From the NCBI GenBank assembly GCA_000091205.1, contig AP006498.2: DNA of 64,000 bases, one strand, 5' to 3'. A program made the position numbers and the translations under genes. The notes below the pieces were generated by a model that searched no databases, had not been told where the DNA came from, and saw only the letters and a program-made list of their open reading frames with translations. The stretch's first letter is position 1. The number at the start of each line of letters is the position of its first letter. This DNA comes from Cyanidioschyzon merolae (lineage: Eukaryota). Below are positions 2 through 64,000 of the stretch, in pieces.

Positions 2-1528
2 GCGAAACTTCATGCGGAGCTTGCCCAGGCGCAGAGACTCTGGGATCAGTGGGCTGCGCTCCATGCGCAGCTCCAAGGCGATGCGGGAATAACCGTGTGC
101 CAGGGCAGCCTCGAGCAACGCCGCACGGCTCTGCACGAACAAGTGAAAGACCTCAAACGAGTGTTGCAAGAGCTTCAGCTCCAGGAGCAGAGCACAGTTG
201 CCAGCATACGCCACTTGGACCGGATGCTGCATTCGGAGCAACCTCCGGTGGCATCCAGCGCAGCAGATTGCGATGGAGCAGCAAAGCCGCAGCAAACACA
301 TTCGAAGACTTTCTGCGCCCTGTGTCTCCAACCAGTAGATGCTGCGTCGTATGCTGATCGTTTACAGGCCCTACAGACGGACCGCCAGCGTCTGGCAAGT
401 GCGCTGGATGACCTCCGCGCACAGCGGCACGACAAGGACGCGGAAATCCAGATCATGGAGCGCGAACTCAGAGACACAGAAGCGGCATTCATGGAGCGGC
501 ATGCATTGGAGCAACGCCTCGATGCAGTGGTGGCGTTGCGCCCCACACCCGAGCATTTGCATGAGCTTTCGCAAGCGAGCGATCGTTGCAGCATGGAGGC
601 CGCACTTGTTATGCGCACGCTCGATACGAATCGCCAGCTTCTAGCCGAATATGAACAGCATCTGCTGCAGCAGCAAGAGCTGCGTTTGCACCAGGAACAA
701 CAGCGCGCGCGTTACGACCGAGCCCTTCGAGCGTTGGACTGGACTCAACAGCAGCGACAGCGTCTACTCCAACCGATAGCTGCTGCGATCCTAGAGGCAA
801 CTGCGCACGTCGCGTCGCTACAGTCCACGTTAAACGAAGCGGTAGCGCATGAACGCACGCTTGTGGATACTGCGGATCGTCTGGAATTCCTTGCGCGCGC
901 ATTTCATCGCGGTGGCATACCGAGCCAGTTACTGGATCAGAGCCTGCAAGTCATCGAGACGCTTTGTGGTCATTACCTACGACATCTGAGCGATGATACG
1001 CTTTTACTGCGAATACGTCGTCGCCGACAAGCGCAGCGTCCTCGGGAGCGGGAGCTTACCAAGGCTACCACGCGCGCAGAGAACGCACTCGAAGTACTTG
1101 TCTGGCAAGTCTACTGTCGAGACGCGCGCACAGGCACGTTCCGGGAACGAGAACTAGGCCTGCTCAGCGGCGGTCAGTTGCGACGAGTCAGTATTGCACT
1201 TTCCTTGGCCTTTGCCGAGTACATCTGTCATCAGCTGGGATATCGTAGTAATCTGCTGGTCTTGGACGAGGCTCTTCAACAGCTTGATCAAGAGGGTGCC
1301 CGTCGCTTAGCGTCACTACTGCCGCAGCTGCAACGTGAGACGGTGCTGGTTATTGCCCACGAGAATGCCAGCTTTCTCGTGGACATCGCGGATGCGCATG
1401 ATGTTGTGGAGCGTGCATCAGGGCGCAGCACGGTGCACTGTGATACCGGGTTTTTAGAGACAGAGCTCGCAGGCGACTCGTTTTCAGGGCGTTCAGAGCT
1501 CGTCCCGCAAGCGCAGGTCCGACGCTGA
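2..1528 (+). CDS. SMC/Rad50/SbcC-family ATPase, C-terminal half (coiled coil, then the ABC signature head). The frame is open to the 5' window edge, so the gene is 5'-partial.
   Basis: ABC signature LSGGQ, immediately followed by Walker B/D-loop LLVLDEALQQLD and the H-loop region VLVIAHEN. There is a long heptad-like coiled coil upstream, with a CxxC (CALC) motif that may be a zinc hook. Frame 2 has no stop back to nt 2. Confidence 0.55.
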   Translation, partial: AKLHAELAQAQRLWDQWAALHAQLQGDAGITVCQGSLEQRRTALHEQVKDLKRVLQELQLQEQSTVASIRHLDRMLHSEQPPVASSAADCDGAAKPQQTHSKTFCALCLQPVDAASYADRLQALQTDRQRLASALDDLRAQRHDKDAEIQIMERELRDTEAAFMERHALEQRLDAVVALRPTPEHLHELSQASDRCSMEAALVMRTLDTNRQLLAEYEQHLLQQQELRLHQEQQRARYDRALRALDWTQQQRQRLLQPIAAAILEATAHVASLQSTLNEAVAHERTLVDTADRLEFLARAFHRGGIPSQLLDQSLQVIETLCGHYLRHLSDDTLLLRIRRRRQAQRPRERELTKATTRAENALEVLVWQVYCRDARTGTFRERELGLLSGGQLRRVSIALSLAFAEYICHQLGYRSNLLVLDEALQQLDQEGARRLASLLPQLQRETVLVIAHENASFLVDIADAHDVVERASGRSTVHCDTGFLETELAGDSFSGRSELVPQAQVRR

Positions 1529-4080
1529 GGTGCTCGCAGTCGTGCGCGTTTGACTTTTGTACCGCTGTATTCAGTGCAGTGGACTCTGGAAGTTATACAT
1601 GATCACACCCATTGTGTTTTTATTTGTTTTGCTCGGTAGGTATTCAAGAAAACCGACGTATGCTTTCATGATGGAGAAAGGTTGCAGAATGACTTGATGC
1701 CGACTCTGTTAGTTTAGCGAAGAACGACGGTATCTGTACGAGCCGGCCACTTACGTGCCAGCCGGCGGATCATCCACACTGCTTCTTGGCGCCATCAAAA
1801 GTGCCTTGCACCCAGAACGGCGCTTTGTTTCTGCGAGAATGCCTTTTCATCAGTCCAACGCATTCTATTTGGCCCTTAAGGAATCCGACCAAAGAAACCG
1901 TATAGTATGTGCGGTTTCCATACCATCGATACGAACAGCGATCAGCAGACACTGATGGACAAGGAGAAACACAAGCTTCTAGGCGAGACCGTCGCGCAGG
2001 GACCCATGCACTGTTGTTTTGTGCGAAAACGCGACCGATAATGACAGGAGCGACGGACGCTCGTCTCACTCGATGAGCGTACGTTCGGGAGAACTGGCAG
2101 ATCTGTGTGTGAGTGCTCAAAGGGCTATAGTGCGCTGTTCGGGGCTCATGCCGCGTTAGCCGCTAGCTCTCCGAAAAATCAGACGTACTGGTCACCTAGA
2201 GACGTTTCGGATCGCGAACCTCTCATATCCCTATTATTCTTGTTCTCTGCTCTGGATGGAATATGGAGTTCCAGTTCGTCTTTACGTACGAATTTCGAAT
2301 CGAAAAATGCGTGTCTTCGTGAATTCCGCCGGAGGCGGCGGGGAGAAGCGCCCTCCTTCTTCTCCATTTGGAAAGCGAATATTTTCACAAATTGCCCCAT
2401 AAGCGTGCCCTGCTTTGCAGTGCGTCTCAATTCGAGCTCCAAACTCTCCTAAGTGCAAGTTTTGCTGCGCGCGCGACATCGAACTCGTTGCTTACGGTAA
2501 TAAAAGTATACATACGCATGCCTGCTTGTCGAAAGCAAACCCGCATCCCGGAGTGGCCTCTTCGATGCATCAACCTCGCGTCATCCATCAAGAACGCTTA
2601 CACTTGTCTGCCGCGGGATACCGGCATACGTTTGCGTACGCGCATCCGCGATACCAGCTTCGCGGTTTTAGAGAGCTCTATTGTCGCATCCGTCGTTTCT
2701 CAGTGTAGCATCTCTCCCAGTACAAAGACGATGCGCTGCAGCCTACCATATCATTGTCCGTTAGGGCGTTGTGCAAGAGCACAGCGGAGCTAAGCGGAGT
2801 TTCCGGGTAGAGTCGCGGGCACGCAGCGCGATGCAATGCAAACATATGCACTGGCAAACGCTGTCGTTAGCGACATCGCAGCCGTCGCAGGAGCCACCGT
2901 ATTCATCAGCGGTGCTGCAAAACCCGGGTCATGAAGCATGTACTGAGTCTGTAGCCGGCGTCGAGCGCCGCTCTCGCTGAGACGCGAGCTACGGCAGGGA
3001 AACCTTCCGGCAATGTATCGAATACGGTTCTGAAACGGAGTTGCATGAAACCGAAACATCTTGTCCCAGTAAACCTCCACTGCAGCGCGTGCAAGAACGA
3101 ATAGCGGGCTCTATTTAGGGCTTTCCGCCGGACAACTGGTGCTGCAGCTTGTCCAAGAAAACTGCTGCTCCGGTTGTATCAGGTCGCCACGGCTGGCGGC
3201 AAAGCGTTCGTGCTGAGTGCCACCCTCTGAGCCGGTGCTGCCCATGCGAAAACCCTCGAAGACACTGTTCAGCGTTCTTGAGACCCTTGGAAACAGCCTC
3301 ATCTAACTGGCACGAGCGCAGAGAAGCATCGTCGCGCCGCAGCACTTCTACGTGCTGTGCAGGCTGGCTTGAACGCCAAAACCACAGCACGACCCTATTT
3401 CCAATATTCCAGCAGACATACATAAAACAGACCAAAAATTCCAATGCTCTTCGAATACGTACACCACGCTATGTGAATTTCGCGACTACTCATCATCCAG
3501 TAAAACAACAAGCATAAGCTGTACGTTCTCGCCCTGTCAATAGAGCTGGCGTCTGCAGCTGCTGGTGTGTCCCCAGATACCACGCCTGTCCCAGTGCGCT
3601 TGCATTTGCCCTCGACACCCTTCACTGCCACTCTAAGATCCAACCCGAAACAAATAATATCCTTTCTACAACGTTTGTTCAACCTCTTATCGAGAAAACG
3701 GCTCAAATACTCGACAAACAACGTTTACGCACGCGACTAAACTGACTTTCCTTAACGGTTACCGCAAGGCGCCTGCACCAACACCCGTCGACGCCTGTCT
3801 CTTGTCATTCTATATTCGGTTCTTGTGGCAAGCGAGCACCAAACGCGTTCCTCGAGCGCACTGAAGCGAGTACGATTGCTTTCCCGAGGCAACCAGAGCC
3901 TCAGTTAATAACCACAAGCACACTCCAGACTCGAAGCGCTTTTCAGTACCCGAGTTGCGTGGCGAGCGACCGGCTTCGAGCGCTGTGCAGGCGCTTTTTC
4001 GAGCGGAACGCAGAGCACTGCTGCCGTGAATGCACCGAGCATCGAGGCCGTTGTCTGAATCGCGCTGTCCTTCACCGGCA

Positions 4081-11303: not shown

Positions 11304-12439
11304 GGAGTCCGTTCACACCCAGCGCTGGGTAGCTTAAGTCAACGAAGATTTGAATCACCTTTGCTGCGTGTATTCGAATGCTTATTCACAATGTACAGCT
11401 GGACGTTGAGATCATGATGGTATGCACTGTATCGATCATCGACGAATTGCCGCTAGGATGTATTCTCTGGTAAATAGTGAAAGGAGGTCTACATTCTGCT
11501 TCGGGTCAGGCATACAATAGTACTCAGATGGTTGAGTAACACAGAAAGAATCACGTAGATACGCTCCGTGCCGAAAACCGATTTGCTCGAAGCGCGCCTG
11601 CGGTTAATGGTATAAAAATGATCCGTTCATCATATTACGGAAAGCAAAAGCAACGATCCTAGCAACTACCAGTGTCTCTATTTCTCAATAGCTTGTTCGC
11701 GTTGTCCTGAAAACACTGGTATACAATCGCATAAAAAGTCCTGGTTCACAAACGGCAATCTTCCGCCGAAATCTCAACGACAGCGTCCTTGGAAAGTCAA
11801 TATCGATATGAAGCACAGAGACGACGATTTGTTTTTTCAGTTAATGAGAGCTTCTTCAGACGAAACGGCCGGAGTGCGGATGGGTAGTCGCGGAGCGTGG
11901 CGTCCGTTGTATGCGCTATCGAACTCTTAGAGAACGAGTATATCATCATCGGTCTAGCTGTAGTGGAATCATTTAGCGGCCTCCAATTCGCGTATACAGA
12001 AGGCTCATACAACAGCGTTGACTTCGTCGAATCAATAAAGGTGTTGTCTCTGACGTCTGGCCACGACCTTCTACTAGACAACGTGGTAGTTCACATTTCC
12101 CCTTGCGTCGAGCTTTTGACGATTCTAATTAGGTAGAGCTGCTTTTGACTCCTCCGTTCTCTCCGCGTTTCAACTGCATCGCAGGAATGTCTTCTATCGT
12201 GAAACGAAATGATCGCTCTAGTGGGCCAATCGATGATGCGTTCAGCACACAGTGAAACACCCGGGCACATGACGTTGTTCTTCCGCCAGTCCTTCATCCT
12301 CCGGGAAGGTCCTCGCTTAAGGGTATCAAGCAGCGCGTTCATTTTTTGAAGAAACTAAAAATCCCAGGGATGAGCTGGGGTTTACTCATCAGAAGATCGA
12401 GATGGAGAAAAGCCAGCGAAGCGCTCCGGCGATAGAAGA

Positions 12440-12812
12440 GCACGGGGAGCTGATCGAGCAGCAAATGGCACAGACGGCACAAGTTCGAGGACTACTTGCA
12501 TTGGTGGGTTCAACAACGGCAAGAAACGCATGGAGTTTGTGAACCGAGACTTTAACGCCGCTATCGATATCAGGAGATGTGCGGTGCTGGAGACGAGACC
12601 TCCAGAATAGACAAGAGTGAACTTTGTTGGACAGCCTCCAAAAATTGAACTATATGAGAAATAATTGGAACCAGTAGCTCGTGGCCGGTCGAAAATGGCT
12701 GGGAGGCGTCTGCACATCAGCTGGAGACGCTGTGTCTAGGGCGCGGTTTCTCGCCAATACTGTGCACGGCCAACGGCGACGTTCGACTTCTGAGGCGAGT
12801 TTGGTAGTGGTG
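12440..12812 (+). mobile_element. Solo 3'-terminal fragment (fragment D) of a TnpB/Fanzor-like element. It carries the RuvC-III motif, a C-terminal tail, and the conserved post-stop non-coding tail.
   Basis: It translates to GKKRMEFVNRDFNAAIDIRRCAVLETRPPE...AGRRLHISWRRCV*. The DNA is homologous to the 3' ends of copies A, B and C, including about 80 nt after the stop (gacgttcgacttctgaggcgagtttggtagtggtgg). Confidence 0.5.
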
Positions 12813-25245: not shown

Positions 25246-26034
25246 TTTCCAATGTATTCTCGAGCGGCGGAGCTCGTCGTGTTGGGATCGTTCCCAACGG
25301 CTCGGGGCTCGATGCAGTCGTTGGAAAGCGTGACGTTCGTGCACGCGTCCGCACCGAAACTGAAAATAGGGATGACCTAAACGAAAATTGACGCTCTCTC
25401 ATGTAATCCAAATTCGGAGCTGAATTCAAAGACCAGAACCGAATGCTTCTGAACCAGCAGCTACAGGGCATTGGAGGAAACGCACATTCGAGCGACGCAC
25501 AAGAACCCCGGACACAACCCCGTTCGCCGCGATCCACGTATGATCCGTACCCCAGTTCGAACGGATGCCCTATGTGGTACGGCAACGCCGTTCTGTCTCC
25601 GTGACGCAACTGTACCGAAGGTAAAGACGCTATTGCGGATGACTAGGGCAGGCATTAGGTGTGCGATAGAACGCATGAAACGACCAGAAAATCCGAGAAG
25701 AAGTTTCGGTAATGTGACTTGGGAGTAGGGTGTTTGATGGATACTTCAAAGCGCACTGAAAAACAAATAAAAAAGAAAGAAAAGAAAAAGCGCACAGTCG
25801 GAGAACGCTGGCCTAAGTAAACGTCTTGTCAATGAAAAAAGAATCCCGCTCGGTGAGCGCATCAGGGAGATCGGGCAGTCAACTGACAAGACGCGCATGT
25901 CGCCGTTGAAGAGAAAAGCGATCCTGATCAGGTGCGTGTTCTACCGGAACAAGTTGGATTTCCGTTGGAGTTTTACAAAAAAGCAGTTTTTCATTTCATT
26001 TGTGCTTCAAACCTCAAACAAGTCTAGTCCAGAG

Positions 26035-28370
26035 TTTTTTCGCAGTATATAACAAAAGCGTTCGAAGAGCGTTCTTTTTCGAAAAAATAAAAAGGAAAGC
26101 TATGAAAAGCAAGTCGACGATCCTGGAAGCCCAGTTTCGCCGGCTGCCAGAAAAAAAACAGAAAAACAGTGCCAAGTCCAGAAGAAAAGGAAGAGAAGAA
26201 GAACCGAAAGGGGGATACCCTACGTCGAAGGCCGCAAGAAAGGCAACTGCACGACGAGAAGGCGGTGAAAGCCTTTCTTCTTGGACATATCAAGGATCCC
26301 TGCAGGGAAAAGTTGCGAGACGCTATCGGAAAACTTGTCGACTCGTACTCCAAGAGTATTGTCAAGGCGTCGTCAGGACCGATGCATTTGGCCAGGGAGA
26401 CGTATCGCGACGTGACGCACATGGAAACAGTCGAGATGCCGGACGAGTCGTTCGACATGACCCTTATTCGATACCTGATGCTTGGTACAGAAAAAGCGCA
26501 GAAGGAAAATGAGCTTGTGCATGCCCTCAACGAAAACTTCGCGGAATTCTGCTTCGAGGGTACCAGAGACGGGGGTGACTCGGATATTTACGACTATGGG
26601 GCGATGAAGTACCTCACGAATCTGAAGAACCGTTTGACAACGAACCTCGAACGTTTCATGACACGCGCAGTGTTTGCACTCTACCCGGGCCAATCTCGCA
26701 ATGGAAAATGGACGATTATCAGTGGCATCACGAGAGATCGCAAGCGTGAAGATGAGGTCGAATTTGTCGATAAGAAGGCATCTAATGAGAGCACAAATGA
26801 AGCTTCTGTAATCCGTGCGGTTATACAAGAGCACCGCGCAGTTTTGGGCTGGCGAATCCAGCAGACAAGCTATCAGAGTTGAAAAAAGATACGGAGACAT
26901 ACTATCGCCTCATCCTGCGCGATTTCGTGTTTTTGGATCGAGAATTCGAACGCAAGGCGGAGATGAAGCTGAGCGAGGAAAAAATGAAGAGTGGGAGAGA
27001 CGGAAGGCTTTCCTAATGGGGAAGCGCTTCAACATGGTTCCAGTGTGCAACATCAAGTCACATTTTGTGACTATCGACTCCAGCGTCCTTCATGGCATCA
27101 TGAGGGAGATCAGTCCGGAGTTCAATGTTAGCAGGGAGGACTTCAACGGTGAAAACCGGGAGACGTACTGGAAGAATATCTTCGACTTCAAGCGTCTCAA
27201 AGCCAGCAAGCAAAAGGTATTCACTGAGATGATCGAAACCAATGGAGTAGACATGTGTATACACTATCGGCGGTTGAAGAGAGATCGTCCAGTCCTGCCC
27301 TCAGCGAAGCATGAAGATGAGAAGGGGGCGGATCCTGCGACGCAGGAAGTGCAGGATAACGACTTCGTCGCTGGCGCGGACTCCGGAAACACAAATATCA
27401 TAACCATCGCAGCACCGAAGCTTGCGGAAGATGGTGCTGACGGCAACTTACGTCAGAAAGACATGCGTCCTTTAAGGTTCTCGAGAGCGAGATACTATTG
27501 AGAATCTGGAATCATGAATGCGAGGAAGAAAACTGAGAAGTGGAATTCAGGAATGAAGGATCACCTGGAAGCTTTGAGCGAGGTGACGAGCCGAGGAGCA
27601 GACTTTGAAGCTTTTCGGGAGTTCATGGATGTTCGCGTTGCTCATTGGGATGCGCTGTAGGAGGAGTATACAAAGCCCCGGTCGCCTCGTTTGCGAATGA
27701 ATTCGTATTGTGGGAAGCAGCGGGCGTTCGCGAATTTTTCAATGAGTTGAGTGCCCTGAAGGAGGATGAAAATCAGAGGCTCGTAGTAGCGTACGGAGCA
27801 GGGCACTGGAAGACCCAAAAAGGGTGTACACCAGCTCCAACGACGAGAGCGTACAAGGAGTGCGCAAGGCGTCTCGTTACGATACCTGTAGATGAGTTCC
27901 GGACATCGTATACACACCATGAACTGGGTTGTACACTTCAGAGGGTGGAGATGGAAAAGTGCCAGCGGAGCCCCGAGGCTATAAAAAAGTACGGACCGCT
28001 CACAGAAGAGCAAATGGAAAGGAGAGCGAATGTTCGAGGGCCTGCTTGCATCAGTAAGTACAACCAGTGATGGTAAGAACCGGAAAGAGTTTGTGAACCG
28101 AGACTTTAACGCCGCTATGAATATAAGGAGATGTGCGGTGCTGGAGAACAGACCTCCAGAGTAGACAAGAGGGTATCTTGTTGGACAATCACTCAAGGTG
28201 GAACCATATGAGAAAAAGATGGAAGCAGTAGTAGGTGGCCGGTCCAAAAAGACTGGGAGGCGTCTGCACCTCGGTTGGAGACGTCTTGTCTAGGGCGGCT
28301 CGGTCGCCACTACTGTACACCGCTGCCGTCGTTCGACTTAGAACGGCGTTTGTTGTTGGTGTGTGTGTAA
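26035..28370 (+). mobile_element. TnpB/Fanzor-like (OMEGA-family RuvC nuclease) transposon relic, copy A
   Basis: The left boundary is defined by where homology to copy B begins (ttttttcgcagtata). The right boundary is where homology to copies B, C and D stops, just after gttggtgtgtgtg. It contains RuvC-I-like GADSGNTNIITIAAP, RuvC-II-like IPVDEFRTSYTHHELGC...C, and RuvC-III NRDFNAAMNIRRCAVLE. Confidence 0.6.
26102..28291 (+). pseudogene. Fanzor/TnpB-like nuclease gene of copy A, disrupted
   Basis: A K/R-rich NLS-like N-terminus comes first (MKSKS...KSRRKGREEE). The reading frame then changes at least 4 times (for example a +/-2 indel in the run gaggaaaaaatgaag). There are two in-frame stops relative to copy B (YY*ESG versus YYLESG, and DAL*EEY versus DALREEY). 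Confidence 0.6.
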
Positions 28371-28417
28371 TCGGTTGTTTGAAAGGCACAGCAGTCGCTG
28401 AGCACTGCTGGAATCCG

Positions 28418-30298
28418 ATGGGGTTTGCTGCAACGCCAGTTGCACGAGTGCTTTCTGTAAAAAAGCCGAGCTCGACGACGGCGAGACCGCGAAGCGTTTG
28501 GACGCCGTCGTTTAGGACACGGAAGAAAAGACTCGCGCCTCTTGTGGCAACGAACTCGCGCAAGACCAGCGCGGGGACGGGTATTCCGCCAGCATCGGGT
28601 CCACGGCCGAGGCAAGTATGGGAAGCACTATCGGCACGGGAGGCTGCGTTCTTGGCGGTCGAGTGTTCTCTGACTCAGGGTCATGATGTCGCCGAAGACG
28701 TGGACGGCAGTGATGCGCTCGACGGGAGGCCAAGCCAAGGGAGCGGCGGCGTTGGAGGCGCTCTCAGTAACAGGTACCTTCTGACGCAGCTAGCGCTTTG
28801 GAGCGAAAAGCACAAGCCCAGTCGCGTAGAATACGCACTGGCGAAGATTATCGCTTTTAATGCAGTTCGACAACGGGCGCTCTTTGACTATGTGCTGCAG
28901 ACCAACATCGTTCGCGATCGGAGCGCCATCGACCAAGAGCCGCACCGCATCAAGTCGGAGGGCATGCACCTATCAATAGCGCAACGTGCACTACTGCACA
29001 CGGCCCTGGCACAGTACGCTTTCATGGAACGTGTTCCCGTCTACACGATTGTTTTTAGTACAGTGGAGATAGCGAAGACTTATTTTGGGCAACGCTTCGC
29101 TGCATTCGCCAATGCAATTTTGCGCAATCTAGTTCGGTACGGAGAGAAGTACGCTGCCGACTTGGAAAGCCGCCGTCCAGCATCCTACATCGTGCGGCCG
29201 CTTCCGTTTCCCGCCGACGCCCTCGATGTGCGCTACTCCTATCCCGCAGTGTTTGCGAGCCGAGTTTTTGGCCAGCTTTTGAATCGGAAACGCCTGGTGG
29301 CCTTCCTGGAGGCCGGAAACATGACCCCGCAAACTTTTCTGCGCGTTCCCCGCCAGCATGCCCAGCATGAAGATTTGAAAATGGCCATTGAAAGGCGCTT
29401 ATTGGTCCCTTGGTCGGACCAAGATTCAACGGAAACAGTGAGTAGACCGTGGATCATTTACCGCGTCGACTTGCAGTGCGCTGGAGAAGATCCAGGTGCG
29501 GCCTTACCGCTCACATTGCCGAGCGCAAATGGTACGGGCTGGGCAGATGATCCGGCCAATGTCCTCACGAGAAGCCTTTTTCAAAGACTGCTGCAGCACT
29601 TTATAGCTCAAAACGTAACACAAGCAGAGCATACGTTTCTTCTCTGCGAACAGTTACGCCAACGCTGGGACAAGGAAAGACGGATCGCGCGGGTCCTGGA
29701 CCTCTGCACCGCACCTGGAGGCAAGCTTACAGCAGTTTTTGAGTACCTGCAGTATAGCGACCTCGGCGACGCGCAGACTGAATACATAGGCATTGATCTG
29801 AGCGATCAACGCATTCATATGGTCCACGAGAATGTCGACAAGACGCCGGGTATGCGCGAAAGTCGCGTTTTTGTCGGCGTTGCCCGTGGCGAGTCCTTTG
29901 TTGATTGCAGAGCGGGCAACATCTTGCGCAGTGAAGACGAGCGCGCTGTCAGTCCGTGTTTCGACCTTGTGATCGCGGACGTACCGTGTACGAATTCGGG
30001 GGTCTTGAATCGGCGACCTGAAGCCCGTTGGAGACTCGACGAGCAGCATTTTGCGTCTTCGGTACCACGCTTGGTTTCGCTCCAGGCGAGTCTTTTGAAT
30101 CGGGCGTGCCTTCTATCTCGCTCTGCGGTGTTCTACATGACTTGCTCAGTTTTGCATGCGGAAGGACGCGATCTTGTGCGGTCAGTTCTCGAAAATCACC
30201 GTGACTTTGAACTTGTTTGGGATCACCTGACCTACACGGATGCCGCTGGACGGGATGGAGGCTATGCAGCCATGCTTTGGCGACGCCCGTCTCATTGA
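28418..30298 (+). CDS. NOL1/NOP2/Sun-family RNA m5C methyltransferase with an N-terminal NusB-like domain (RsmB-like, probably organellar)
   Basis: SAM-binding motif LDLCTAPGGKLT. Catalytic motif DLVIADVPCTNSGVLNRRPEARW. NusB-like FANAILRNLVRY. The long ORF from 28235 overlaps the Fanzor-A 3' tail in another frame, so the first downstream ATG (28418) was taken as the start. Confidence 0.75.
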   Translation: MGFAATPVARVLSVKKPSSTTARPRSVWTPSFRTRKKRLAPLVATNSRKTSAGTGIPPASGPRPRQVWEALSAREAAFLAVECSLTQGHDVAEDVDGSDALDGRPSQGSGGVGGALSNRYLLTQLALWSEKHKPSRVEYALAKIIAFNAVRQRALFDYVLQTNIVRDRSAIDQEPHRIKSEGMHLSIAQRALLHTALAQYAFMERVPVYTIVFSTVEIAKTYFGQRFAAFANAILRNLVRYGEKYAADLESRRPASYIVRPLPFPADALDVRYSYPAVFASRVFGQLLNRKRLVAFLEAGNMTPQTFLRVPRQHAQHEDLKMAIERRLLVPWSDQDSTETVSRPWIIYRVDLQCAGEDPGAALPLTLPSANGTGWADDPANVLTRSLFQRLLQHFIAQNVTQAEHTFLLCEQLRQRWDKERRIARVLDLCTAPGGKLTAVFEYLQYSDLGDAQTEYIGIDLSDQRIHMVHENVDKTPGMRESRVFVGVARGESFVDCRAGNILRSEDERAVSPCFDLVIADVPCTNSGVLNRRPEARWRLDEQHFASSVPRLVSLQASLLNRACLLSRSAVFYMTCSVLHAEGRDLVRSVLENHRDFELVWDHLTYTDAAGRDGGYAAMLWRRPSH

Positions 30299-46414: not shown

Positions 46415-48549
46415 TACTTCTCGAACAGAGCTTGGTTGTGTCACCTTCGATTTTGCAGTGAACACTGCGAGAAATCTGCACAATTGATGTGACTTTTCAG
46501 CATTGTCTTGAGAGATGGTGATGCTCCTGTGACTTTGGAGCGTACGAGCAACCCGGGAGGAACGGTGCGCACCGGATTATTCGCGATGCCGAGCAAAGTT
46601 TTCTTGGATGGCTGAACGGAGAGAACGTTGGGAATCGCAGATCATTTCACGATTTTCCAGACGGCAGCGTCCATCGCTCTCCGAAACGTGCAGCAACTCA
46701 CGACAAGTTGTCCTCGGAGTAACGCATTCCTGGGTGGTGCTGTCGAGTACAGAGTCGGTGGACACTGCCCGCAGCTGTTATGTTGGCGGGGGCGCTGCAT
46801 GGTTTGGCATATAGTAACGCATACGACTGGATCGGTTTCGCAGGATGCCTGGGACCACGAATTCCTTCCTTCAGAGTGAACGTCGCACGAAAATGAACAT
46901 ACGCTATCAAGCCGGTGCCGCTTGTGCACGGATTGGCATATTTGGATTGCGAGTTCCTGGTCTAAGCAGCCTGCGGACAGGCAGCTTAGGCGATGCTAGG
47001 TGGCATTCAGTCCTTGAGGGAGCTCGCTGCAGTCTCAGCAGGGATTGCTCTGGAAGGGAAACACGTTTCCGTCTTCCGATACTGACGACAGTAGCTGCCA
47101 TCCCTGCATGCTGTATCGTTGCTCCTGGGAGCATGGATATTGTATTCGATTTTTATGGACAGTTTCGTGTCTTCGGCTCCTTGTCCAAGTGCGCGTTCGC
47201 TTTGTACGGCATGTGTATTTTCAGAAGCATTTCACATGGATCAGGCCTCGTCTCAGCACATAGCAGTCGTATCCGAGCTGACTCGATTAGTAGGGTGCAA
47301 AGACTGGGCCATGCATAGATGCCATCCAAGAAACAGCCACCACTTTCGTAACTAAAGACATCATCCGAGGACAAAACGAATGACCAACACGACGTGGAGC
47401 TCGTTTTCGCGCTTGATCCAGGTCTTGACCATGTCGCACGATGTGCACGACTCTCGCAATCTGACGAGTACTCGACGTTGTTTCTGAAACTCGCTATTCA
47501 TAGACACCATTTCATTTCCCACGGGCGCAGTCGAGAATCGAGCGCCATTGTCGGCCTACAAGCAGATCGAGATGAAAGGAACCATGGCCGGGCAGCTGCG
47601 ACGCGGGAAAGTATCCTGTCGCAGAGCAGTCGCGACATCGGACGAGGCAATACGAGGACTGCGTATACGCTCTCAATAGTCGTCGCCGTAACCTGCGCCC
47701 TGGTGCGTCAGAAGCGGCAATAAATGGTTGCGTCGCTCACGGAGCCCCAGTAATAGACAACGTTTTGGAGGGAAGTCCTGTTGTCGAACCAGCTGCGGCG
47801 GCCGCAGAGGAACTGCAGCACCCTTTGGGGGTTCGTTGCGTTTCTTTGACCAGAGGTTGAAACCTCGTTGTCCTTCCTTGGAGTGCTTCTGGCCCATACC
47901 GGAGTCCAGAAATTTTTAGATTTTTTTACGACACACAGCGTCGAAAGCGTGAAACTGAACAAAGAACGCAGTGGAAGCGAACGCTGCCGCAAAGCCCTGT
48001 GCACAACGCATCCGCGCAACAGAAAATCGTTGCATCGAACGGCTGCAAATGTTCGCCGCGCACGCACCGGCGAGATTGCGCACGTGCGCGCAAAAGCAGC
48101 TGTAAGAACCTAGACATAACGTACATGGTATCCGACGCCGCATGCAGTGCTGCACGCTTCGCGTGCGAGCACCGCGGAAGCGTGCGCAGCGATACGGCGC
48201 GATGGATCCCATGTGCATTATGTCAGTGGCACAAAAAAGTCCTACGCCCAAGGGGCTATAGACGTGCCCGCACTCGCTGACGCCTCCACACCTTTTTTCA
48301 CCGGCCGACTGCTATCGGTCCCAGCTTCTCCTTGTGGACGTCGAGCGTCAGAGGCTGCCCAACAACGTTGAATCGCGTCAACTCTTTGGGTCTCGTGTTC
48401 AGCACTGCACATCTCTTGATGTTGGTGGCAGCCCTCAAGTCTGGATTCACAAACTCCATGCGTTTCTTGCTGCTGCTTGTCATCACCAATGCAAGGAGTC
48501 TGTAAACTCACGGCCTCTAGGCATGTACGGTCCCGTCATCTTCCGGTGG

Positions 48550-48760
48550 GGTAAACAATTTTTCTCGTCTGTCTCCCCTCCTGTTATTTTTCGTAACCTG
48601 CTGCCCTTCGCTCCTTGGTTGGCGAGAAGAGGAGATTTTCTTTTTTCCTGCCAGCCAGCGACACCGGGCCTCCAGGATCCTCGATTTGCATATCGATCAC
48701 TCTGCCCTGGAATGTATATTTTTGTACGAACATACTTTGAATGCATCTGCTATAGGCCGC
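48550..48760 (-). mobile_element. Short 5'-end fragment (fragment E) of the TnpB/Fanzor-like element family
   Basis: gcgacaccgggcctccaggatcctcgatttgc matches the copy-B 5' coding region ccgaccctggacctccaggatcgtggacttgc. The translated RGSWRPGVAGWQEKRKSPL resembles the N-terminal HDPGGPGSAVAKKKTKDG of copy B. Confidence 0.3.
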
Positions 48761-51124
48761 GAAAAAGCATTTGATGACACGCATCCAGAAATGGAACACA
48801 ATTGACATTAAAGCCTACAGGTAACCCACAGCCATCTAACACTGACATAGCAACAACAGACCAACTGGAACGCCGCGATCGATATGAACCACAGGCACGA
48901 GGTTTTGTATACCAATCGGTGTATCTTCCTGAAGACGAAATATTCGGCGCGTGTAGGGATGTTCGCAGTAAGGGCCTCGCTGTATGTACGATTGAACCTG
49001 AGGCGAGCGGGAATGTCATAATCTGTTTCAGCTGCCGTCGAAGCCTTTGGCTGCCTCAGTTTCGCTCGTAGAGAAGACTTGCAAAAAAGCACCCACTTTG
49101 TCGAATCATTGAAGATATTTCCCCTGGCATCTGGCGGTGACTTTCTTCATGACAACATGGAATTTCACCGTTCACCTTGCCTTCGAGGTTCTGTTGATTC
49201 TGTCGAGCTGTAGAACTGTTTCTTATTCCTTCGTAGTCTGTGTCGTTGAACCGCATCGAGGAAATTTTTTATCGCTACAAGTAATCATTGGTCCACTGGA
49301 TGAATTGTTGAAGCTTTCACCATGGAGACAACGGAACGAATATTGTTTTTTCTTCCGCAAGTCCTGCTTTCTTCGGGGAGGTCCTTACGTAATGGAATCT
49401 TGAGATGTGGTCATTTTCGAAAATACGATGCCCTAGGGAAAGTTTTGGGAAAACAAGTCGGGTATCCTGCAGGGCCGTTCATAGCCGGGTTCAATAAATA
49501 AAACGAAAAATACTCTTCCCGCCGACCATCGAGGGAAGAAGAGCACAAAACGAAGAAGATGAAGAAGAGAGAGACAGCCAGGACAAGGTGTCTGCCCGGC
49601 TGGACGATGACGAAACTTTAGTGTCACAGAGGGCAAGAGTTTGAGGACGCCTAGCATTTCTATGTTCGAGAAGCGGCGAGAGTCGCATGGAGTTTGCGGT
49701 CCGAACTTCAACGACCTCGTGGATATCAGACGACGCATGGTGCAGAAGAGGATACCCGACGAGCTGAGGTGATCTAACATTGTGGCGCAGCCTCTCAAGC
49801 CCGATTTCTGGTGGGATAATCAGAACCGAGACCAGACAGATGGTCAGGAAAGGCAGAGAGGCGTCCATGAGTGGATGTATGTAAATACTCTATGTTCTTA
49901 GAGGATTTGTTTAGGAGATCATATGGACTAGAAAAATAGAACACTCGCCTTGATCCCGTGTTGATTTTGTACGGAATTTTTGGTAAAAGTGCAGCCTCTC
50001 TTCAGGCCTCCTGCAGGAACAGATCCTGTACAGGGTGACCTGAAACCACGTGTGGTGGAGGTCAGGAACCGTCAAGCTGTCAATGTACAGAACTGGAAGC
50101 AATCCGGGCGCACTATGAACTTGTTTGGCAAGAATAAGCGCTGCTGCCTGGGCTGAGGATATATATGAGAAGGAAAAATTTTGCAGTCGAAACTGAGAAT
50201 TTATAGAACTTTCGTCAGTTCGGAAGCAACAGCTGTAAACGTACCCACCATAAAATGCACTTTTCCTCAATGATGCTTCGTTTCAAGTAGCCACATACGC
50301 TGACTTCTTCATCCATACGAAGGATACACATAGGCACCAGAAAGAACGCTTCAGAATACGCGGATCCGCAAGGTCGTGCCTATGATTCGTAGATCATATT
50401 GTGCACGCTTGCGGATTTCGAACTATTTTGACAGCAATCTTGGCTCATGCAGTATGGCCATGTTAAGAAAGTATTCACGGTATACTCTCATGGAAGACGC
50501 TCATTTTTACATATAGACAGGCTACTCGGTCTCCTGTATCTGCATCTGGTCGGTAAGCAGGTCACGGCTTCTAGGGTTCATCGTAAAGAGAACCTGCGGA
50601 CATCAGGAACCGCCCTGTCAAAGCAACGCCAGTACCAAAAGAATCTCACAAAGTGCTCAGAGAGGACATGGCAATGGGTTCCTCGCAACATGCAAACACC
50701 CTACCGTGTATACTTGCGATGGCGCGAAGTCGACTTGGGCCCGCAAGCGCTCGATGCTCGCGGTCGCCACGCTGCGCAAGCGCGGATCCGTGAGAACCCT
50801 GGCGGGTGGGATAGGCAAACCGGGTCCTGTGCCAAAATGACCGAATGTGTGTACTTCCAGGAGCAAAACGGGAACGGTACAGTATTTGGTAGAAATGTTC
50901 CGTAGCGTCAGCGAGCATCAACGTGTCTGGTATATTCCATATTGTCCAAAAATGAAAAGAGCAACCGGCAATAGCACGGCGGTACAAGACGCTGGAAGAA
51001 TCGGTTTTGGCGGGAAATCAGTAGGTCGTAGCCGAGATCCTTGCGCAGCTGCTGCCGCCAAGGCGCTGTACACCCTCATGTGTGTATACGACTGCTAGGC
51101 TCTCGAACGATTTCTCGAAACGAC

Positions 51125-54034: not shown

Positions 54035-54211
54035 TTTTTTGTGCACTGGAAGCATCCTGGAATACTTCATAAAGTCTCCGAGTATAATAAATCTCTGTCT
54101 CTGTAATTTGCGTGCGGGAAAAATGCACACACACCAACAACGCCGCTCTGAAGTCGAACGACGTCGGGCGTGTACAGTAGTAGCGGTGAACGCGCTCTAG
54201 GCTAGACATCC

Positions 54212-56777
54212 TCAACTGACGTGCAGACGCCTCCCAGTCTTTTTGGACCGGCCACCCACTACTGCCTCTATTATTTTCTCATATAGTTCGACTTTGAGAG
54301 GTTGTCCAACAAAGTCCTCTCGTGTCAGCTCTGGAGTCCTCGTCTCCAGCACCGCACATCTCCTGATATTGATAGCGGCATTAAAGTCTCGGTTCACAAA
54401 ATCGATACGTTTCTTGCCATCACTGGTTGTACATGCTGATGCAACTAGTCCTCGAACTTTCGCTCTCCTTTTCATTTGCTCTTCCGTCAGTGGTCCATAC
54501 TTTATTATATCTTCAGGGCTCCTCTAGCACTTTTGCATCTCCACTCTCTGAAGTGTACAACCCAGCTCATGGTGTGTATACGATGTTCGAAACTCATCTA
54601 CAGGTATTGTAACAAAACGCTGTGCACACACTCCTTGTACGTTCTTGTCGTTGGAGCTGGCGTAGTCCCTTTTTGTATCTTCCAGCGCCCTGCTCCGTAC
54701 GCTACCACGAGCCTTCGAGTCTTGTCCTCTTTGAGCGCACTCAAATGATTGAAAAGGTTGGAAAACGCCCGCTGCTTCCCACCGTATCGATTCATACGCA
54801 AACGAGCCCATCGGGGCTTGGTATACTCCTCCCGCAGCGCATCCCAATGAGCAACGCGATCATCCATGAATTTCCGAAAAGCCTGAAAGTCCGCTCCTCG
54901 GCTAGTCACCTCGCTCAAAGCTTCCAGGTGATCCTTTCTTCCTGCATTCCATGTTTCGATTTTCTTCCTCGCATTCATGGTTCCTGATTCCAGGTAGTAC
55001 TTCGCTCTCGAGAATCTCAAAAGACGCATGTCTTTCTGACGTAAGTTACCGTCAGTGCCATCTTCAGCACGCTTCGGTGCTGCGATGGTGATGATATTCG
55101 TATTCCCAGGGTCCACGCCAACGACAAGGTCGTTATCCTGCACTTTCTGCATCTCAAGACCCGCCTCCTTCTTTTCTTCATCCTTCACCGCGCCAATGAC
55201 GAGGTCGTGATCCTGCACCTCCTGCATCGCAGGACCCGCCTCCTTCTTTTCTTCATCCTTCACCGCGCCAATGACGAGGTCGTTATCCTGCACCTCCTGC
55301 ATCGCAGGACCCGCCTCCTTCTTTTCTTCATCCTTCACCGCGCCAATGACGAGGTCGTTATCCTGCACCTCCTGCATCGCAGGACCCGCCTTCTTCTTTT
55401 CTTCATCCTTCACCGCCCTAACGACAAAGTCTTCATCCTCCATCTCCTCCGTCTCAGGAACCGCCTCCTTTTCATCGTCATCCTTCGCCGCGTCAACCAT
55501 AAAGTCGTTATCCTGCAGTTTCTGCGTCGCAGCATCCGCCTCTTTGTTTTCTGCATCCTTCGTCACGGGCGCAGCCGAGTGAGGGACTGGCCGATCTTTC
55601 TTCAACCGCCGGTAGTGTACGCATAAGGCTACTCCATCGGTTTTGATCAACCCAGTGAATACCTTTTGTTCGCTGACTTTGACAGGTTTGAAATCGAAGA
55701 TACTCCTCCAGTACGTCACCCGGTTCTCGCCGGTGAAATCCTCCGTGCTAACTTTGAACTCCGGACTGATCTCCTCCATGATGCCATAAAGGACGCTGGG
55801 GTCGATACTAACAAAATGTGACTTGATGTTGCACAACGGAACGACGTTGAAGCGCTTCCCCTTTAGGACAGCCTTCCTTTTCTCCCACTCTAAATTTTCC
55901 CTCTTCAGCCTCATCTCCGCTTTGCGTTCGAGTTCTCGGTCCAGAAACACGAAATACAGCAGAATAAGGCGATAGCATCTTTCCTTATCTTTTTTTCAAC
56001 TCTGATATCTTGTCTGCTGGATTCGCCAGCCCCAAGATTGCACGGTGCGCTTCTATAACCGCACGGATGACGGAATCCTCATTTGTGCTCCTGCGTGAGG
56101 CCTTCTTGTTGACAAATTCGACCTCATCTTCACGCTTGCGATCTTTCGTGATGCCATTGATAATCGCCCATATCCCCTTGCAAAAGATGCCCGGATACAG
56201 CGCAAACACGGCACGTCTCATGAAACGTTCGAGGTCCACTGTCAAATGGTTCTGCAGATTCGTGAGATGCTTCATCGCTCCGCATGTGTAGATATCCCGG
56301 TCACCCTTGTTTCGAGTGCCCTCGAAACTGTAAAAGGGTTGTTTCTCGTGGAAGGCATGTACTAGCTCATTTTCCTTTTGCGTTTCATCTGTACCAAGCA
56401 TCAGGTGATGAGTAAAGACTTATCGAAAAACCCGTCAGGGTACCTCGACCGTTTCCATGTGCGTAACTTCGTGGTACATCTCCCTCGCCAAATGCATTAG
56501 TCCTGACGACGCCTTGACAATACTCTTGGAGTACGAGCCGACACGTTTTTCGATAATGTCTCGCAACTTTCCCCTGTAGGGATCCTTGATATATCCAAGA
56601 AGACAGGTTTTCACCACAACCTCGTAGTGCGGTCGTCTTTCTTGCCGCCTTCTACGTAGGGCCTCCCATTTTTGCTTCTTTTTCTCTTCCTTTTCTTATG
56701 AACTCGGCACCGTCTTTTGTTTTTTTTTTAGCAACCGCCGACCCTGGACCTCCAGGATCGTGGACTTGCTTTTTCAT
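54212..56777 (-). pseudogene. Fanzor/TnpB-like nuclease gene of copy B, disrupted
   Basis: Relative to copy A there are in-frame stops (MGGPT*; VEVP*RVFR*), a +1 insertion in a poly-A tract (ttgaaaaaaagata versus ttgaaaaaagata in A), and frame changes near 54540 and 54480. It also contains an expanded 75-bp (25-aa) tandem repeat (DNDLVIGAVKDEEKKEAGPAMQEVQ x about 4.5) that is absent from copy A. Confidence 0.6.
55130..55470 (-). repeat. Tandem repeat, 75-bp unit x about 4.5, inside the copy-B Fanzor-like ORF
   Basis: The unit gccaatgacgaggtcgttatcctgcacctcctgcatcgcaggacccgcctccttcttttcttcatccttcaccgc is repeated on the plus strand. Copy A has a single unit at the same position. Confidence 0.8.
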
Positions 56778-57678
56778 ACCTTTCCTTTTTAGTTTTTTTT
56801 TTTGAGAAAGAACCCTCTTTGAAGCTTTCTGTTGTATACTGCGAAAAAACACTCCTGTATTTTTATTTGAGGGCTGCAACATGACTGAGATGAAACCATA
56901 TATTTTGTTACGATTGCAATGCAAATACAAGTTATATGTTAGAACAACACGCCAAGGAATCCTGAGGATCACATTCCCCTTCAACGGCGACAAGTGCGTC
57001 GCGTCCGTTGACTACCCGACCTCCCAGAGGCGCTCACCGAGCGCGATGCGTGCACCGCGCGAGACGCTACACAGATCGATGAAGGACACGTGTCCGACGC
57101 CACGATGGCGCCTCGACGCTCTTTACACAAATGTCGCAACTGTATCGTATCGCCAACACCGCCGCTGCACGGGATGCGCGCATTTGCGCTCGCGCATCGG
57201 GGCAGCTGCAGGCTGCCCCAAGGGGCGTGCTGCTGCGACTCTTTGGAACCGAACTTTGGCATTATGATGCATCGTATTCGTTTTTACACAATAATAGGAC
57301 ATGATTGTTCCATTTCAAGTCCAGGGCCATTAGTGCATCTTGGTTGGTGTCCCATGTGTACTATTTAGGACAGGATCTCACCAGTAGCAGATCGAAACAA
57401 ACTTTTGGATGATTGGTCCATGTGCATAAATGTCCATTACATTCTATATTGATCCGTATAGAACAGGTTCAAGTGCTCGCATGCATCTCGAGAGCAGAAC
57501 CGGCTGCACGCGTTGCGCAACGTGCGTTTCCAACGTTGCGCGCGCAACGCACGTGGCTGCAGTCATTGAAAACGGCTAGTTTTGCGATCGTTCGTTGCGT
57601 GATCTGAAGCCGGCGATTTCCTTCTTTGGACACGCTTTTGGGCGAGCTTCCCGAGCTGTACGAAGACAAGATTCACCG

Positions 57679-62900: not shown

Positions 62901-64000
62901 TAATTTTTTAGGAGAAAAACTCATTGAAGACCTCTACTTTGAGCAGCGAAAATCAGCTGAGAACATTTACTTGAAGATTGAAACGCCATTGAAGCCAAAA
63001 CTATATTTTGCTACGACCCGATCGCAAAATAAAAGTGGCCGCGATGGATAAAACAGTCGCTCCAGAAGAGGTCATTAGCAGGTTTCTCTTGATCGGCGAG
63101 AAGCACGTGGTGTGATGTGACGGCCAAATTTCAGGATAAGTCATTAACAGGTGCGCGACGAAGAGAATGCAAAAAAATTACCCACAAAGGGGATAGCAAG
63201 CACTATCGCAAACTACAGTAAACTTCAATAGGAAGAGGTTTTTACGTTTGCTCCAACAGTCATCTATTAGGCGGGAGGTCTCCGAGCCGCGAGATTCTAC
63301 CAGATAGTGCCCCGTCTAGAACTTCAGTGGCAGGTGATGTGTCGCTCCTTTCCATCTCGTCCGAAACGAATTTTTTGGGACTAGGAGGGGCTATGCTGCG
63401 TCTGGGCCCCAACTTGGATGCAGTGAACACGTACTACACCGCTTCGCACTCCCACAGGCAGAGGGTCTGCAACAACAGCTTGGAGGCTCGCAACAAAATA
63501 AATCTCTGTCATTCCATGTTGTATGAACCAAGCCACTTCCAACGAGCACAGTGGTATGCAAAAGCTGCTCTGTAACCAGAGGATATCCGCAACGGAGATA
63601 CAAACGATAGAGCGGGTGCTTACGGCAGGCATTGGCGCCGAATAAAAAGCCTGACTAGATCAATAAAGCCGAGATTAAGTAAATACAACGGAAGCTGAAG
63701 TAACTATTCAGCGGAACGGTTGATTTCCTGAAACGATTATCGATCCGGAGGTCACGGCCGTCTGGGCAGTGTAGAGGTTCTGTAAAAACCAAAAACAAAA
63801 AAGCTGGAGGTAAAACAGTAATGATCATGGAATGCCAGATGGAGATATAACAGATGCGTACGCGCTCAGATCGTACCGCCGAAGACGGATCAGTAATGAA
63901 TCTTGAGAGATAGAAGTCATAATCACATATGCATTGGCACTGGGATCATCGCGTTAATGGGGAAGTGCGTGAAGTGCGTGGGTTGGAGGTAAATGGGGGG

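Follow-up and report, generated by a model that had tools for sequence, protein, structure and literature searches.

Decayed copies of CMe-1A, a Fanzor1-encoding repeat, in a 64-kb window of the Cyanidioschyzon merolae genome

The window analysed here, by which we mean the whole 64-kb stretch of DNA, comes from the red alga Cyanidioschyzon merolae, and five of its open reading frames (ORFs) agree exactly with C. merolae 10D proteins in the series CMP341–351 (BAM81926–81935). Between unrelated genes, and in both orientations, it contains three multi-kilobase copies of one repeat, named A, B, and C, together with a 3′ fragment, D, and an internally deleted derivative, E. The copies match one another with a blastn E value of 0, far above chance expectation for a repeat family, and their extents were refined by blastn against the published 3169-bp consensus of the element CMe-1A.

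Copy A (25869–28328, plus strand) corresponds to consensus positions 671–3145, with 86% identity over 2479 bp. It is a pseudogene made up of the Fanzor1-bearing part of CMe-1A without the 5′ TE-N2_CMe module, an inverted fragment of which (25557–25729, minus strand; consensus 84–254, 76% over 173 bp, E = 3e-30) lies a short way upstream. Copy B (54170–57005, minus strand), likewise a pseudogene devoid of the 5′ module, aligns with consensus 687–3137 at 82–88% identity, and the mutual similarity of A and B spans 54126–57047. Copy C (60683–63681, minus strand) covers consensus 108–3128 with 73% identity over 3055 bp and keeps most of the TE-N2_CMe module; it is the oldest and most decayed of the copies. 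Copy D (12370–12783, plus strand) is a 5′-truncated 3′ fragment (consensus 2737–3153; 82% over 418 bp, E = 1e-117) that retains RuvC-III, with the motif NRDFNAA at 12542, and the non-coding 3′ tail. In copy E (48276–48805, minus strand), two consensus pieces with 75% and 72% identity in blastn are joined: a 5′ piece comprising the leader and the ORF start (consensus 800–968 at 48805–48636) and a 3′ piece (consensus 2857–3084 at 48500–48276). The tblastn match of this copy covers amino acids 653–731 with 51% identity (E = 7e-17). Elsewhere in the window, a weak tblastn match at 49704–49811 (E = 0.004) has a stop codon and shows only a vague NFNxxxxIRR resemblance.

The four copies covered by the lesion count, A to D, are all pseudogenised, with frameshifting indels and in-frame stops numbering, respectively, 6 and 3 in A, 9 and 3 in B, 14 and 9 in C, and 1 and 2 in D, and no copy in the window is able to encode a working protein. 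A preliminary description of this DNA, made from the sequence alone, had rightly taken the host for an intron-poor eukaryote, an alga or a protist, here the alga C. merolae 10D, and had counted five insertions. The three multi-kilobase copies and D stand, with A, B, and D placed to within about 50–190 bp; the piece near 48.6 kb, read at the time as a 5′ end, is the internally deleted copy, and copy C extends about 800 bp further 5′. The frameshifts and stops that it had noted are present in copies A to D, and the "four lesions" attributed to copy B fall short of the 9 indels and 3 stops found.

A 75-bp tandem repeat of 5.9 units lies inside copy B (55116–55561, minus strand), as detected by Tandem Repeats Finder and by blastn self-matches. 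It is translated into 25-residue repeats within the linker that immediately precedes RuvC-I, where the published CMe-1A consensus has a single 75-bp unit. The equivalent segment of P0001, a close relative with a 752-residue ORF, is also expanded and is modelled as disordered (pLDDT < 50).

The CMe-1A consensus, taken from the supplement of PMC3627910, aligns to copies A to E with 72–88% identity, and a consensus protein built from A, B, and C with frames corrected shows 86% identity to published CMe-1 (617 of 717 residues, no gaps). The Fanzor1 family CMe-1 and the element CMe-1A were described from the C. merolae genome by Bao and Jurka (2013, Mobile DNA 4:12, PMC3627910), who reported a 3169-bp consensus encoding a 734-residue protein, about 150 copies with ~80% identity to the consensus, some ORFs that are still intact, no terminal inverted repeats (TIRs), a 5′ 635-bp region corresponding to TE-N2_CMe, and a TSD that was not determined. 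Earlier, a novel 3.2-kb interspersed repetitive element present in 253 copies, amounting to about 5% of the C. merolae genome and transcribed, had been found by Nozaki et al. (2007, PMC1955436), and for its ORF a protein of white spot syndrome virus was the first relative reported. The window repeats are the CMe-1A of the 2013 study and the repeat of the 2007 one. Their identity of 73–88% to the CMe-1A consensus counts against a distinct family, and the family is not new, since it was catalogued in the C. merolae genome in 2013; the earlier suggestion of a "previously uncatalogued family" is wrong, the 3.2-kb repeat itself having been known since 2007. Being the same element in the same genome, the window copies show nothing different in kind, and what is particular to them is the 75-bp repeat expansion of copy B, the missing TE-N2_CMe module of copies A and B, and the deleted copy E.

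Downstream of the ORF, the element carries a non-coding 3′ tail, which in copy A occupies approximately positions 28255–28345 on the plus strand. It is composed, in this order, of the stop codon, a mini-hairpin (GGCG..CGCC), a CACTACTGTACAC box that is nearly invariant, a terminal hairpin formed by CGTCGTTCGA and TCGAACGGCG, and a GT-rich run, into which the stem of the terminal hairpin can be extended by G-U pairs. Across 45 copies the tail is 80–99% conserved, as highly as the ORF, and conservation drops sharply after ..GGCGTT. The 3′ hairpin folds at −8 kcal/mol or better in 86% of 58 distinct tails, and its stability exceeds that of shuffled sequence only modestly (DNA-fold z about −1). 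Covariation of the two 3′ hairpins in a fixed register was not significant (81.9% of cells paired vs 82.1% in shuffles), partly because the hairpin register of one subfamily is shifted by 3 nt; sliding the hairpin partners by +3 gave 70% paired. RNAalifold found almost no consensus structure among 45 3′ ends, and an Rfam search of the tail returned no match. The tail is a candidate for either an omegaRNA scaffold or the right end of the element.

Since CMe-1A has neither a transposase of its own nor terminal inverted repeats, it must be moved by something else, possibly through the 3′ hairpin and not through inverted repeats. An explanation that concerns how the element moves, and not what it is, holds that it was mobilised via this hairpin by a rolling-circle enzyme of the Helitron/Helitron2 type or a single-strand enzyme of the IS200/IS605 type, or was retroposed by resident non-LTR elements, instead of being cut and pasted by a DDE transposase; we consider this possible and somewhat doubtful. 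The absence of TIRs (PMC3627910) and the conserved 3′ end, with its terminal hairpin and GT-rich run in most copies, are in line with such a route, as is the TE-N2_CMe module, in which a GT-rich tail comes after a strong hairpin (z = −3.6) at the 3′ end, and Helitron2 elements with end hairpins are known to carry other Fanzor1 genes. The 5′ end of the consensus, however, does not fold (−1.3 kcal/mol, z = +1.05), so that the 5′ hairpin required of a Helitron2 is lacking, and asymmetric terminal inverted repeats were not established, none being convincing by eye. For the consensus, a non-autonomous Helitron2 element was rejected on these grounds, despite the 3′ hairpin. The 26 non-LTR retroelements of C. 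merolae (PMC1955436), the T-rich 5′ flanks, and the combination of common 3′ ends with heterogeneous or truncated 5′ ends (copies A and B begin at consensus 671–687, copy D at 2737) also speak for mobilisation via the hairpin or retroposition; against retroposition, no TSDs were found, none being convincing among 12 full-length metagenomic copies. In addition, no RepHel, Y1, or RT gene is linked to the element here, and the non-significant covariation of the hairpins weighs on the same side. In 5 of 10 distinct copies a "TGAT" precedes the 5′ end at a distance of 7–10 nt, possibly as a target motif or as a sign that the element reaches slightly further 5′.

It is very improbable that the repeats arose by segmental duplication of a gene of host or viral origin and not by insertion of a mobile element. 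The missing TSDs, also not determined in PMC3627910, the absence of terminal inverted repeats and of a transposase, and the viral protein that was the first reported relative of the ORF (PMC1955436) are all compatible with duplication, yet different copies have unrelated flanks but common element ends, which are sharp on the 3′ side. Moreover, contigs from hot-spring metagenomes contain more than 408 related stretches, set in many distinct flanks, published counts reach 150–253 copies in the 16.5-Mb C. merolae genome (PMC3627910, PMC1955436), and the window itself holds copies in both orientations between unrelated genes, including the truncated D and the internally deleted E.

The protein encoded by the mobile element displays the three RuvC motifs in the order I-II-III. 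RuvC-I reads VVGVDPGNTNIITIA in copy B, GADSGNTN in copy A, and GLNPLNTN in copy C, where the catalytic Asp is replaced by Asn; RuvC-II, PVDEFRTSYTHHELGC, is common to copies A, B, and C, and RuvC-III, NRDFNAA, to copies A, B, C, and D. The motifs start at 27367, 27882, and 28096 in copy A (plus strand) and are positioned at 55125, 54607, and 54394 in copy B (minus strand), and in these two copies the putative catalytic D/E/D set is complete. The corresponding residues D484, E656, and D725 of P0001 (D431, E603, and D672 in CMe-1 numbering) are invariant across 46 relatives. In a sequence alignment they pair with chain positions 777, 935, and 1000 of PDB 8GKH, which, after subtraction of a 394-residue tag offset, are the Mg-coordinating residues D383, E541, and D606 of SpuFz1.

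Of the Fanzor1 motif defined in 2013, D-X(125,275)-[TS]-[TS]-X-X-[C4 zinc finger]-X(5,50)-RD (Bao and Jurka 2013, PMC3627910), CMe-1 shows the spacing, 175 between D431 and T606-S607, and R671-D672, with HH..C..C instead of four Cys. The zinc finger appears degenerate: His610, His611, Cys615, and Cys625 are the only ligand candidates in the consensus, in place of a canonical C4 set, and this segment of the P0001 model is of lower confidence (pLDDT 53–66). The N-terminus of the family consensus is basic, KKRKT..KTKKQKREARRQRLQERR, and constitutes a candidate nuclear localisation signal. The RuvC-I, II, and III motifs quoted in the preliminary description are present as written in the copies, as is the K/R-rich N-terminus in the consensus, and its HH...C...C segment exists in the non-canonical form just described.

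One-step searches do not detect the relationship. A Pfam scan of single ORF fragments gave no match; with the frame-corrected protein, only a sub-threshold match to PF07282 over 11 residues was obtained (E = 0.37, 11.4 bits for a cut-off of 26.3), and phmmer with the consensus against the PDB returned only noise (IcmQ, angiogenin). It is thus through profiles, intermediate sequences, and structure that the protein is assigned to Fanzor1. A 3-sequence profile matched only SpuFz1 (8GKH) in the PDB, with E = 1.7e-9, and a 46-sequence profile matched only PpFz1 (4.8e-26), SpuFz1 (2.1e-20), and GtFz1 (3.2e-16), the alignment to SpuFz1 being nearly full length. A search of the family reaches 4522 clusters (50% identity) at E ≤ 1e-3, which makes it a large one, and 18 of the 46 relatives match PF07282 (Cas12f1-like TNB), the best with E = 2e-8. 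An AlphaFold (AF2) model was made for P0001 (pLDDT 79.5, pTM 0.77), and the top seven structures retrieved with it from the PDB by Foldseek are all Fanzor1, a fold of REC/WED/RuvC/NUC architecture (E 1.6e-15 to 1.6e-12), with a target-normalised TM of up to 0.70, reached with SpuFz1, followed by Cas12f and CasPhi at E > 0.01. Profiles, intermediate sequences, and the predicted structure together place CMe-1 in Fanzor1, the eukaryotic homologues of TnpB. Among the checks proposed at the outset, the direct Pfam search is not significant on its own, while the profiles of the family, which match Fanzor1 structures only and align D/E/D with SpuFz1, and the structure prediction, run on P0001, uphold the view of the copies as relics of the TnpB/Fanzor kind in which the split-RuvC motifs are correctly ordered. 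That the repeat belongs to a different transposase family, or encodes no nuclease and resembles RuvC in its D/E/D by chance, would fit the non-significant Pfam and phmmer searches with the frame-corrected protein and the lone ORF fragments that match nothing, and is nonetheless refuted, as a next to negligible prospect, by profiles that match Fanzor1 structures only (down to 5e-26) and a fold search that gives Fanzor1 only, then weakly Cas12f and CasPhi, with the pairing of the invariant acidic residues with SpuFz1 catalytic residues and the published Fanzor1 classification (PMC3627910) in agreement.

Experimental structures are available for SpuFz1 from Spizellomyces punctatus (PDB 8GKH and 9CEU–9CEZ; Saito et al. 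2023, PMC10432273) and for PpFz1 and GtFz1 (PDB 9CF0 and 9CER; Xu et al. 2024, PMC11423790). CMe-1 resembles SpuFz1 in the near-full-length profile alignment (E = 2e-20), in the fold match, and in the aligned RuvC D/E/D, whereas sequence identity is only 12–15%. Inverted repeats of 30 nt occur in SpuFz1 elements but are absent from CMe-1A; the zinc finger of SpuFz1 is CxxC...CxxxxC and that of CMe-1 only HH..C..C; RuvC-I contains DPN in SpuFz1 and DPG in CMe-1; and the omegaRNA and activity of SpuFz1 have been demonstrated, while those of CMe-1 are predicted. With TnpB (IS200/IS605, IS607, e.g. ISDra2) and Cas12f, CMe-1 shares a split RuvC with a TNB/zinc-ribbon insertion, and its RuvC-III gives weak PF07282 matches, from E = 0.37 for the window consensus to 2e-8 in relatives; the relationship is remote, Cas12f and CasPhi being the next-best structural matches. 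CMe-1 differs from them in its much larger N-terminal REC region, its basic N-terminus, and its eukaryotic host. No Y1 or serine recombinase ORF of the kind expected for an adjacent TnpA occurs within or beside the window copies, and with PF07282 below the gathering threshold CMe-1 was not assigned to prokaryotic TnpB proper, the homology being at the superfamily level only. A distant homologue, P0041, adjoins a DDE_3 (Tc1/mariner) transposase; transposons of the Tc1/mariner type are known to capture Fanzor1 genes (PMC3627910), and the arrangement agrees with this.

Very probably, all five segments are defunct copies of CMe-1A, a repeat of ~3.2 kb whose single ORF encodes the Fanzor1 protein CMe-1. 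By analogy with characterised Fanzor1 enzymes, intact CMe-1 would be a REC/WED/RuvC effector that binds an omegaRNA made from the 3′ end of the element, takes its guide from the DNA flanking the element, and cuts matching DNA beside a short target-adjacent motif by means of RuvC D431/E603/D672. Such RNA guidance, with an omegaRNA lying within the conserved ~75–100-nt 3′ tail, may be accompanied by nuclear import via the basic N-terminus and by some role in the maintenance or spread of the element; no characterisation of an omegaRNA or nuclease activity of CMe-1 was found in the literature searched. More tentatively, and with less expectation than for the identity of the repeat, the 75–100-nt tail might be the omegaRNA scaffold of a thermo-acidophile Fanzor1, and near-intact members in natural Cyanidioschyzon populations, such as P0001, might be active RNA-guided nucleases.

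As a discovery, the locus adds little, the repeat having been known since the C. merolae genome papers and recognised as Fanzor1 since 2013. It has value as a calibration, in that a split-RuvC nuclease was recognised from raw sequence although the standard Pfam scan misses it (E = 0.37). C. merolae grows in hot and very acidic conditions, and the practical interest of CMe-1 lies in its being a Fanzor1 from such a habitat: if the tail is an omegaRNA and P0001-like members are active, it would provide a heat- and acid-adapted Fanzor. For the organism, CMe-1A is a family without terminal inverted repeats or a transposase that stands at 150–250 copies in a genome ranking among the most compact of any eukaryote.

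The repeat family is real and does not result from chance. Comparison of the copy B region with the window by blastn yielded three long, mutually alignable copies and one 3′ fragment (E-values of 0 to 1e-74), and a fifth, degenerate copy was located at ~48.3–48.8 kb by tblastn with the frame-corrected consensus protein. The RuvC motifs GVDPGNTNIITIA, PVDEFRTSYTHHELGC, and NRDFNAAxNI are present in the window ORF lists at the positions quoted in the preliminary description, whose observation of a repeat family therefore holds. The 3169-bp consensus of the published element CMe-1A was taken from the supplement of Bao and Jurka 2013 (PMC3627910) and aligned to the window: copy A (25869–28328, + strand) covers consensus positions 671–3145 with 86% identity, copy B (54170–57005, − strand) positions 687–3137 with 82–88% identity, copy C (60683–63681, − strand) positions 108–3128 with 73% identity, and the 3′ fragment D (12370–12783, + strand) positions 2737–3153 with 82% identity. 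Copy E (48276–48805, − strand) joins positions 800–968 to 2857–3084; an internal deletion of ~1.9 kb has thus fused the 5′ leader and start-codon region to the last ~230 bp of the element, an arrangement that recalls the "ghost" elements, devoid of an ORF, reported for the Fanzor1 protein SpuFz1. A weak tblastn match to the RuvC-III region at 49704–49811 (+ strand; E = 0.004, 42% identity, NFNDLVDIRRRMV.., interrupted by a stop in frame) may be noise or a sixth relic of great age.

The host sequence is that of Cyanidioschyzon merolae 10D: five window ORFs, read from the first ATG, are exactly equal to annotated proteins of this strain, among them valine-tRNA ligase BAM81928, phytoene-dehydrogenase-like BAM81926, CMP343C, CMP351C, and a phosphate cotransporter; all five map to one record of 908,485 bp. 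Other genes encode RPN1, an MCM protein, a DPE2-type glucanotransferase with a CBM20, an RsmB-like methyltransferase, and a Hint/Kelch protein, a content that fits an intron-poor red alga. The mechanically called 687-aa ORF of the RsmB/NusB-like gene (28235–30298, + strand) begins at a GTG within the 3′ tail of copy A, and the true gene start must therefore lie further downstream. Only ~35 bp separate the end of copy D from the start codon of CMP343C.

The family had been presented as previously uncatalogued, which is wrong, because the CMe-1A Fanzor1 family is already catalogued in this genome. C. merolae carries one Fanzor1 family, CMe-1, whose element CMe-1A is present in ~150 copies, each ~80% identical to a ~3-kb consensus; it lacks terminal inverted repeats (TIRs), its target-site duplication (TSD) is given as not determined, and a distinct repeat, TE-N2_CMe, matches its 5′ 635 bp with 95% identity (PMC3627910). 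The consensus protein rebuilt from copies A, B, and C is 86% identical, without gaps, to the 734-aa CMe-1 protein. A "novel interspersed repetitive element" of 3.2 kb was described earlier in 253 copies amounting to ~5% of the genome; it is transcribed, and its truncated ORF is weakly related to WSV486 of white spot syndrome virus (Nozaki et al. 2007, PMC1955436), a virus also listed with a Fanzor1 by Bao and Jurka (PMC3627910). The 2007 repeat and CMe-1A are taken to be the same family. Copies A and B both lack the TE-N2_CMe module, and the Fanzor-bearing part therefore circulates without it too; an inverted TE-N2_CMe fragment lies just 5′ of copy A (25557–25729, − strand; consensus 84–254, 76% identity).

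The family connects firmly to Fanzor1 through its relatives. The proposed one-step Pfam test matched only the domain PF07282 (Cas12f1-like TNB), at an E-value of 0.37 over 11 residues of RuvC-III, which is not decisive, and phmmer with the consensus protein against PDB sequences returned only noise. Word-indexed searching recovered 41 clusters, almost entirely from JGI metagenomes of the hot-spring type, along with two intact distant homologues with 28–30% identity, P0040 and P0041; the latter matches PF07282 at 4.8e-4 and adjoins a DDE_3 Tc1/mariner transposase. A three-sequence profile had a single match in the PDB, SpuFz1 (8GKH, 1.7e-9). An exhaustive profile search gave 4522 clusters at 50% identity (E ≤ 1e-3), and a 46-sequence profile matched exactly three PDB proteins, all Fanzor1: PpFz1 (4.8e-26), SpuFz1 (2.1e-20, nearly full length), and GtFz1 (3.2e-16). 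PF07282 was matched by 18 of these 46 relatives, with a best E-value of 2e-8. The AlphaFold2 model of P0001, a near-intact metagenomic relative with a 752-aa ORF, has a pLDDT of 79.5 and a pTM of 0.77; Fanzor1 structures take the first seven places in its Foldseek comparison with the PDB (E-values of 1.6e-15 to 1.6e-12; TM of 0.70 with SpuFz1), followed by weak matches to Cas12f and CasPhi. The TnpB/Fanzor interpretation is thus supported by profiles that match only Fanzor1 in the PDB and by the top structural matches. Many of the proteins P0001–P0041, and loci L001 and L002, have a weak precomputed match to Pfam PF26935 (DUF8286), which, if real, is probably a Fanzor1 domain still labelled as of unknown function in Pfam.

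Thirteen columns are invariant over the 46 relatives, including the RuvC-I Asp, the RuvC-II Glu, and the RuvC-III Arg-Asp. In the HMM alignment, the predicted catalytic D/E/D residues (D431, E603, and D672 of CMe-1) fall, as had been proposed, on RuvC catalytic positions: residues 777, 935, and 1000 of the MBP-tagged 8GKH chain, or, after subtraction of the 394-residue tag offset, D383, E541, and D606 of SpuFz1, which coordinate two Mg ions (Saito et al. 2023). The Fanzor1 motif defined in 2013 contains a C4 zinc finger; the corresponding segment of CMe-1 is noncanonical, with only His610, His611, Cys615, and Cys625 as candidate ligands. In copy B, a 75-bp tandem repeat just upstream of RuvC-I extends to 5.9 units (55116–55561, − strand), each encoding 25 aa (..AGPAMQEVQDNDLVIGAVKDEEKKE..) of the linker. 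The published consensus has one unit and P0001 ~3–4 (residues ~375–470), where the expanded repeat is disordered in the AlphaFold2 model; the segment is apparently a Fanzor1 linker that varies in length.

Homology predicts that CMe-1, where intact, would act like SpuFz1 as an RuvC endonuclease guided by an omegaRNA. In 45–58 distinct copies, the ~75 nt that follow the stop codon match the ORF in conservation, which stops abruptly after ..GGCGTT. Read from the stop codon, this tail comprises a GGCG/CGCC mini-hairpin, then an almost invariant CACTACTGTACAC box, a terminal hairpin CGTCGTTCGA-loop-TCGAACGGCG, with other sequences or a shifted register in some subfamilies, and a GT-rich run able to lengthen the stem by G-U pairs. 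Folded with RNA parameters, 86% of tails reach −8 kcal/mol or lower (mean −13.5 kcal/mol versus −8.9 in upstream control windows; median z −1.9). Because a formal covariation test of the tail hairpins was not significant, the fold z is only about −1 with DNA parameters, and an Rfam search of the tail returned no match, we infer, rather than report as a result, that the tail is a candidate omegaRNA. The 3′ ends in the window (28320–28350; 54150–54180, −; 60660–60700, −; 12770–12800) were considered with 58 tails from related loci: in most copies the GT-rich run (TTGTTGGTGTG, GTGGTGGTG, or TTTGGTG) follows the terminal hairpin and pairs, mostly by G-U, with sequence upstream of it, extending the stem to 14–16 bp (RNA parameters). 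This run may belong to the element, or it may be a preferred target or a guide region.

No TIRs were found in the element, no TSDs in full-length metagenomic copies, and no hairpin at the consensus 5′ end. At the 5′ junctions of full-length copies (L006, L007, L014, L033, L047, L057, L079, and others), most copies are T-rich over the 10–15 nt that precede the published 5′ end, and among ten distinct copies five have TGAT 7–10 nt before this end. The published consensus may lack a few bases, or these features may reflect a target or TAM-like preference. The 3′ end of TE-N2_CMe (CMe-1A consensus ~545–640) combines a strong hairpin, CTTTCCCCC...GGGGGAAAG (−11.5 kcal/mol, z = −3.6; none of 200 shuffles reached this stability), with a downstream GT-rich tail, and occurs in the window only degraded, in copy C. 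This hairpin plus GT-rich tail architecture, shared with the CMe-1A 3′ end, suggests that both elements are recognized by common machinery.

Relative to the published CMe-1 ORF, copy A has accumulated six frameshifting indels and three stops, copy B nine and three, copy C fourteen and nine, with loss of the RuvC-I Asp, and copy D one and two. Some intact copies are stated to exist (Bao and Jurka 2013, PMC3627910). JGI metagenome contigs of up to 162 kb, which also bear Cyanidioschyzon-like genes, contain more than 408 related stretches; the CMe-1A family is therefore present in environmental Cyanidioschyzon genomes. The environmental copies (loci L004–L082; contigs Ga0078972, Ga0080006, Ga0123519, Ga0207433, and JGI24721J...) show 79–88% protein identity, and the majority are likewise decayed. 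Few long ORFs, of 722–752, 600, and 569 aa, are left in the 79 loci, and the family is therefore mostly dead beyond strain 10D as well.
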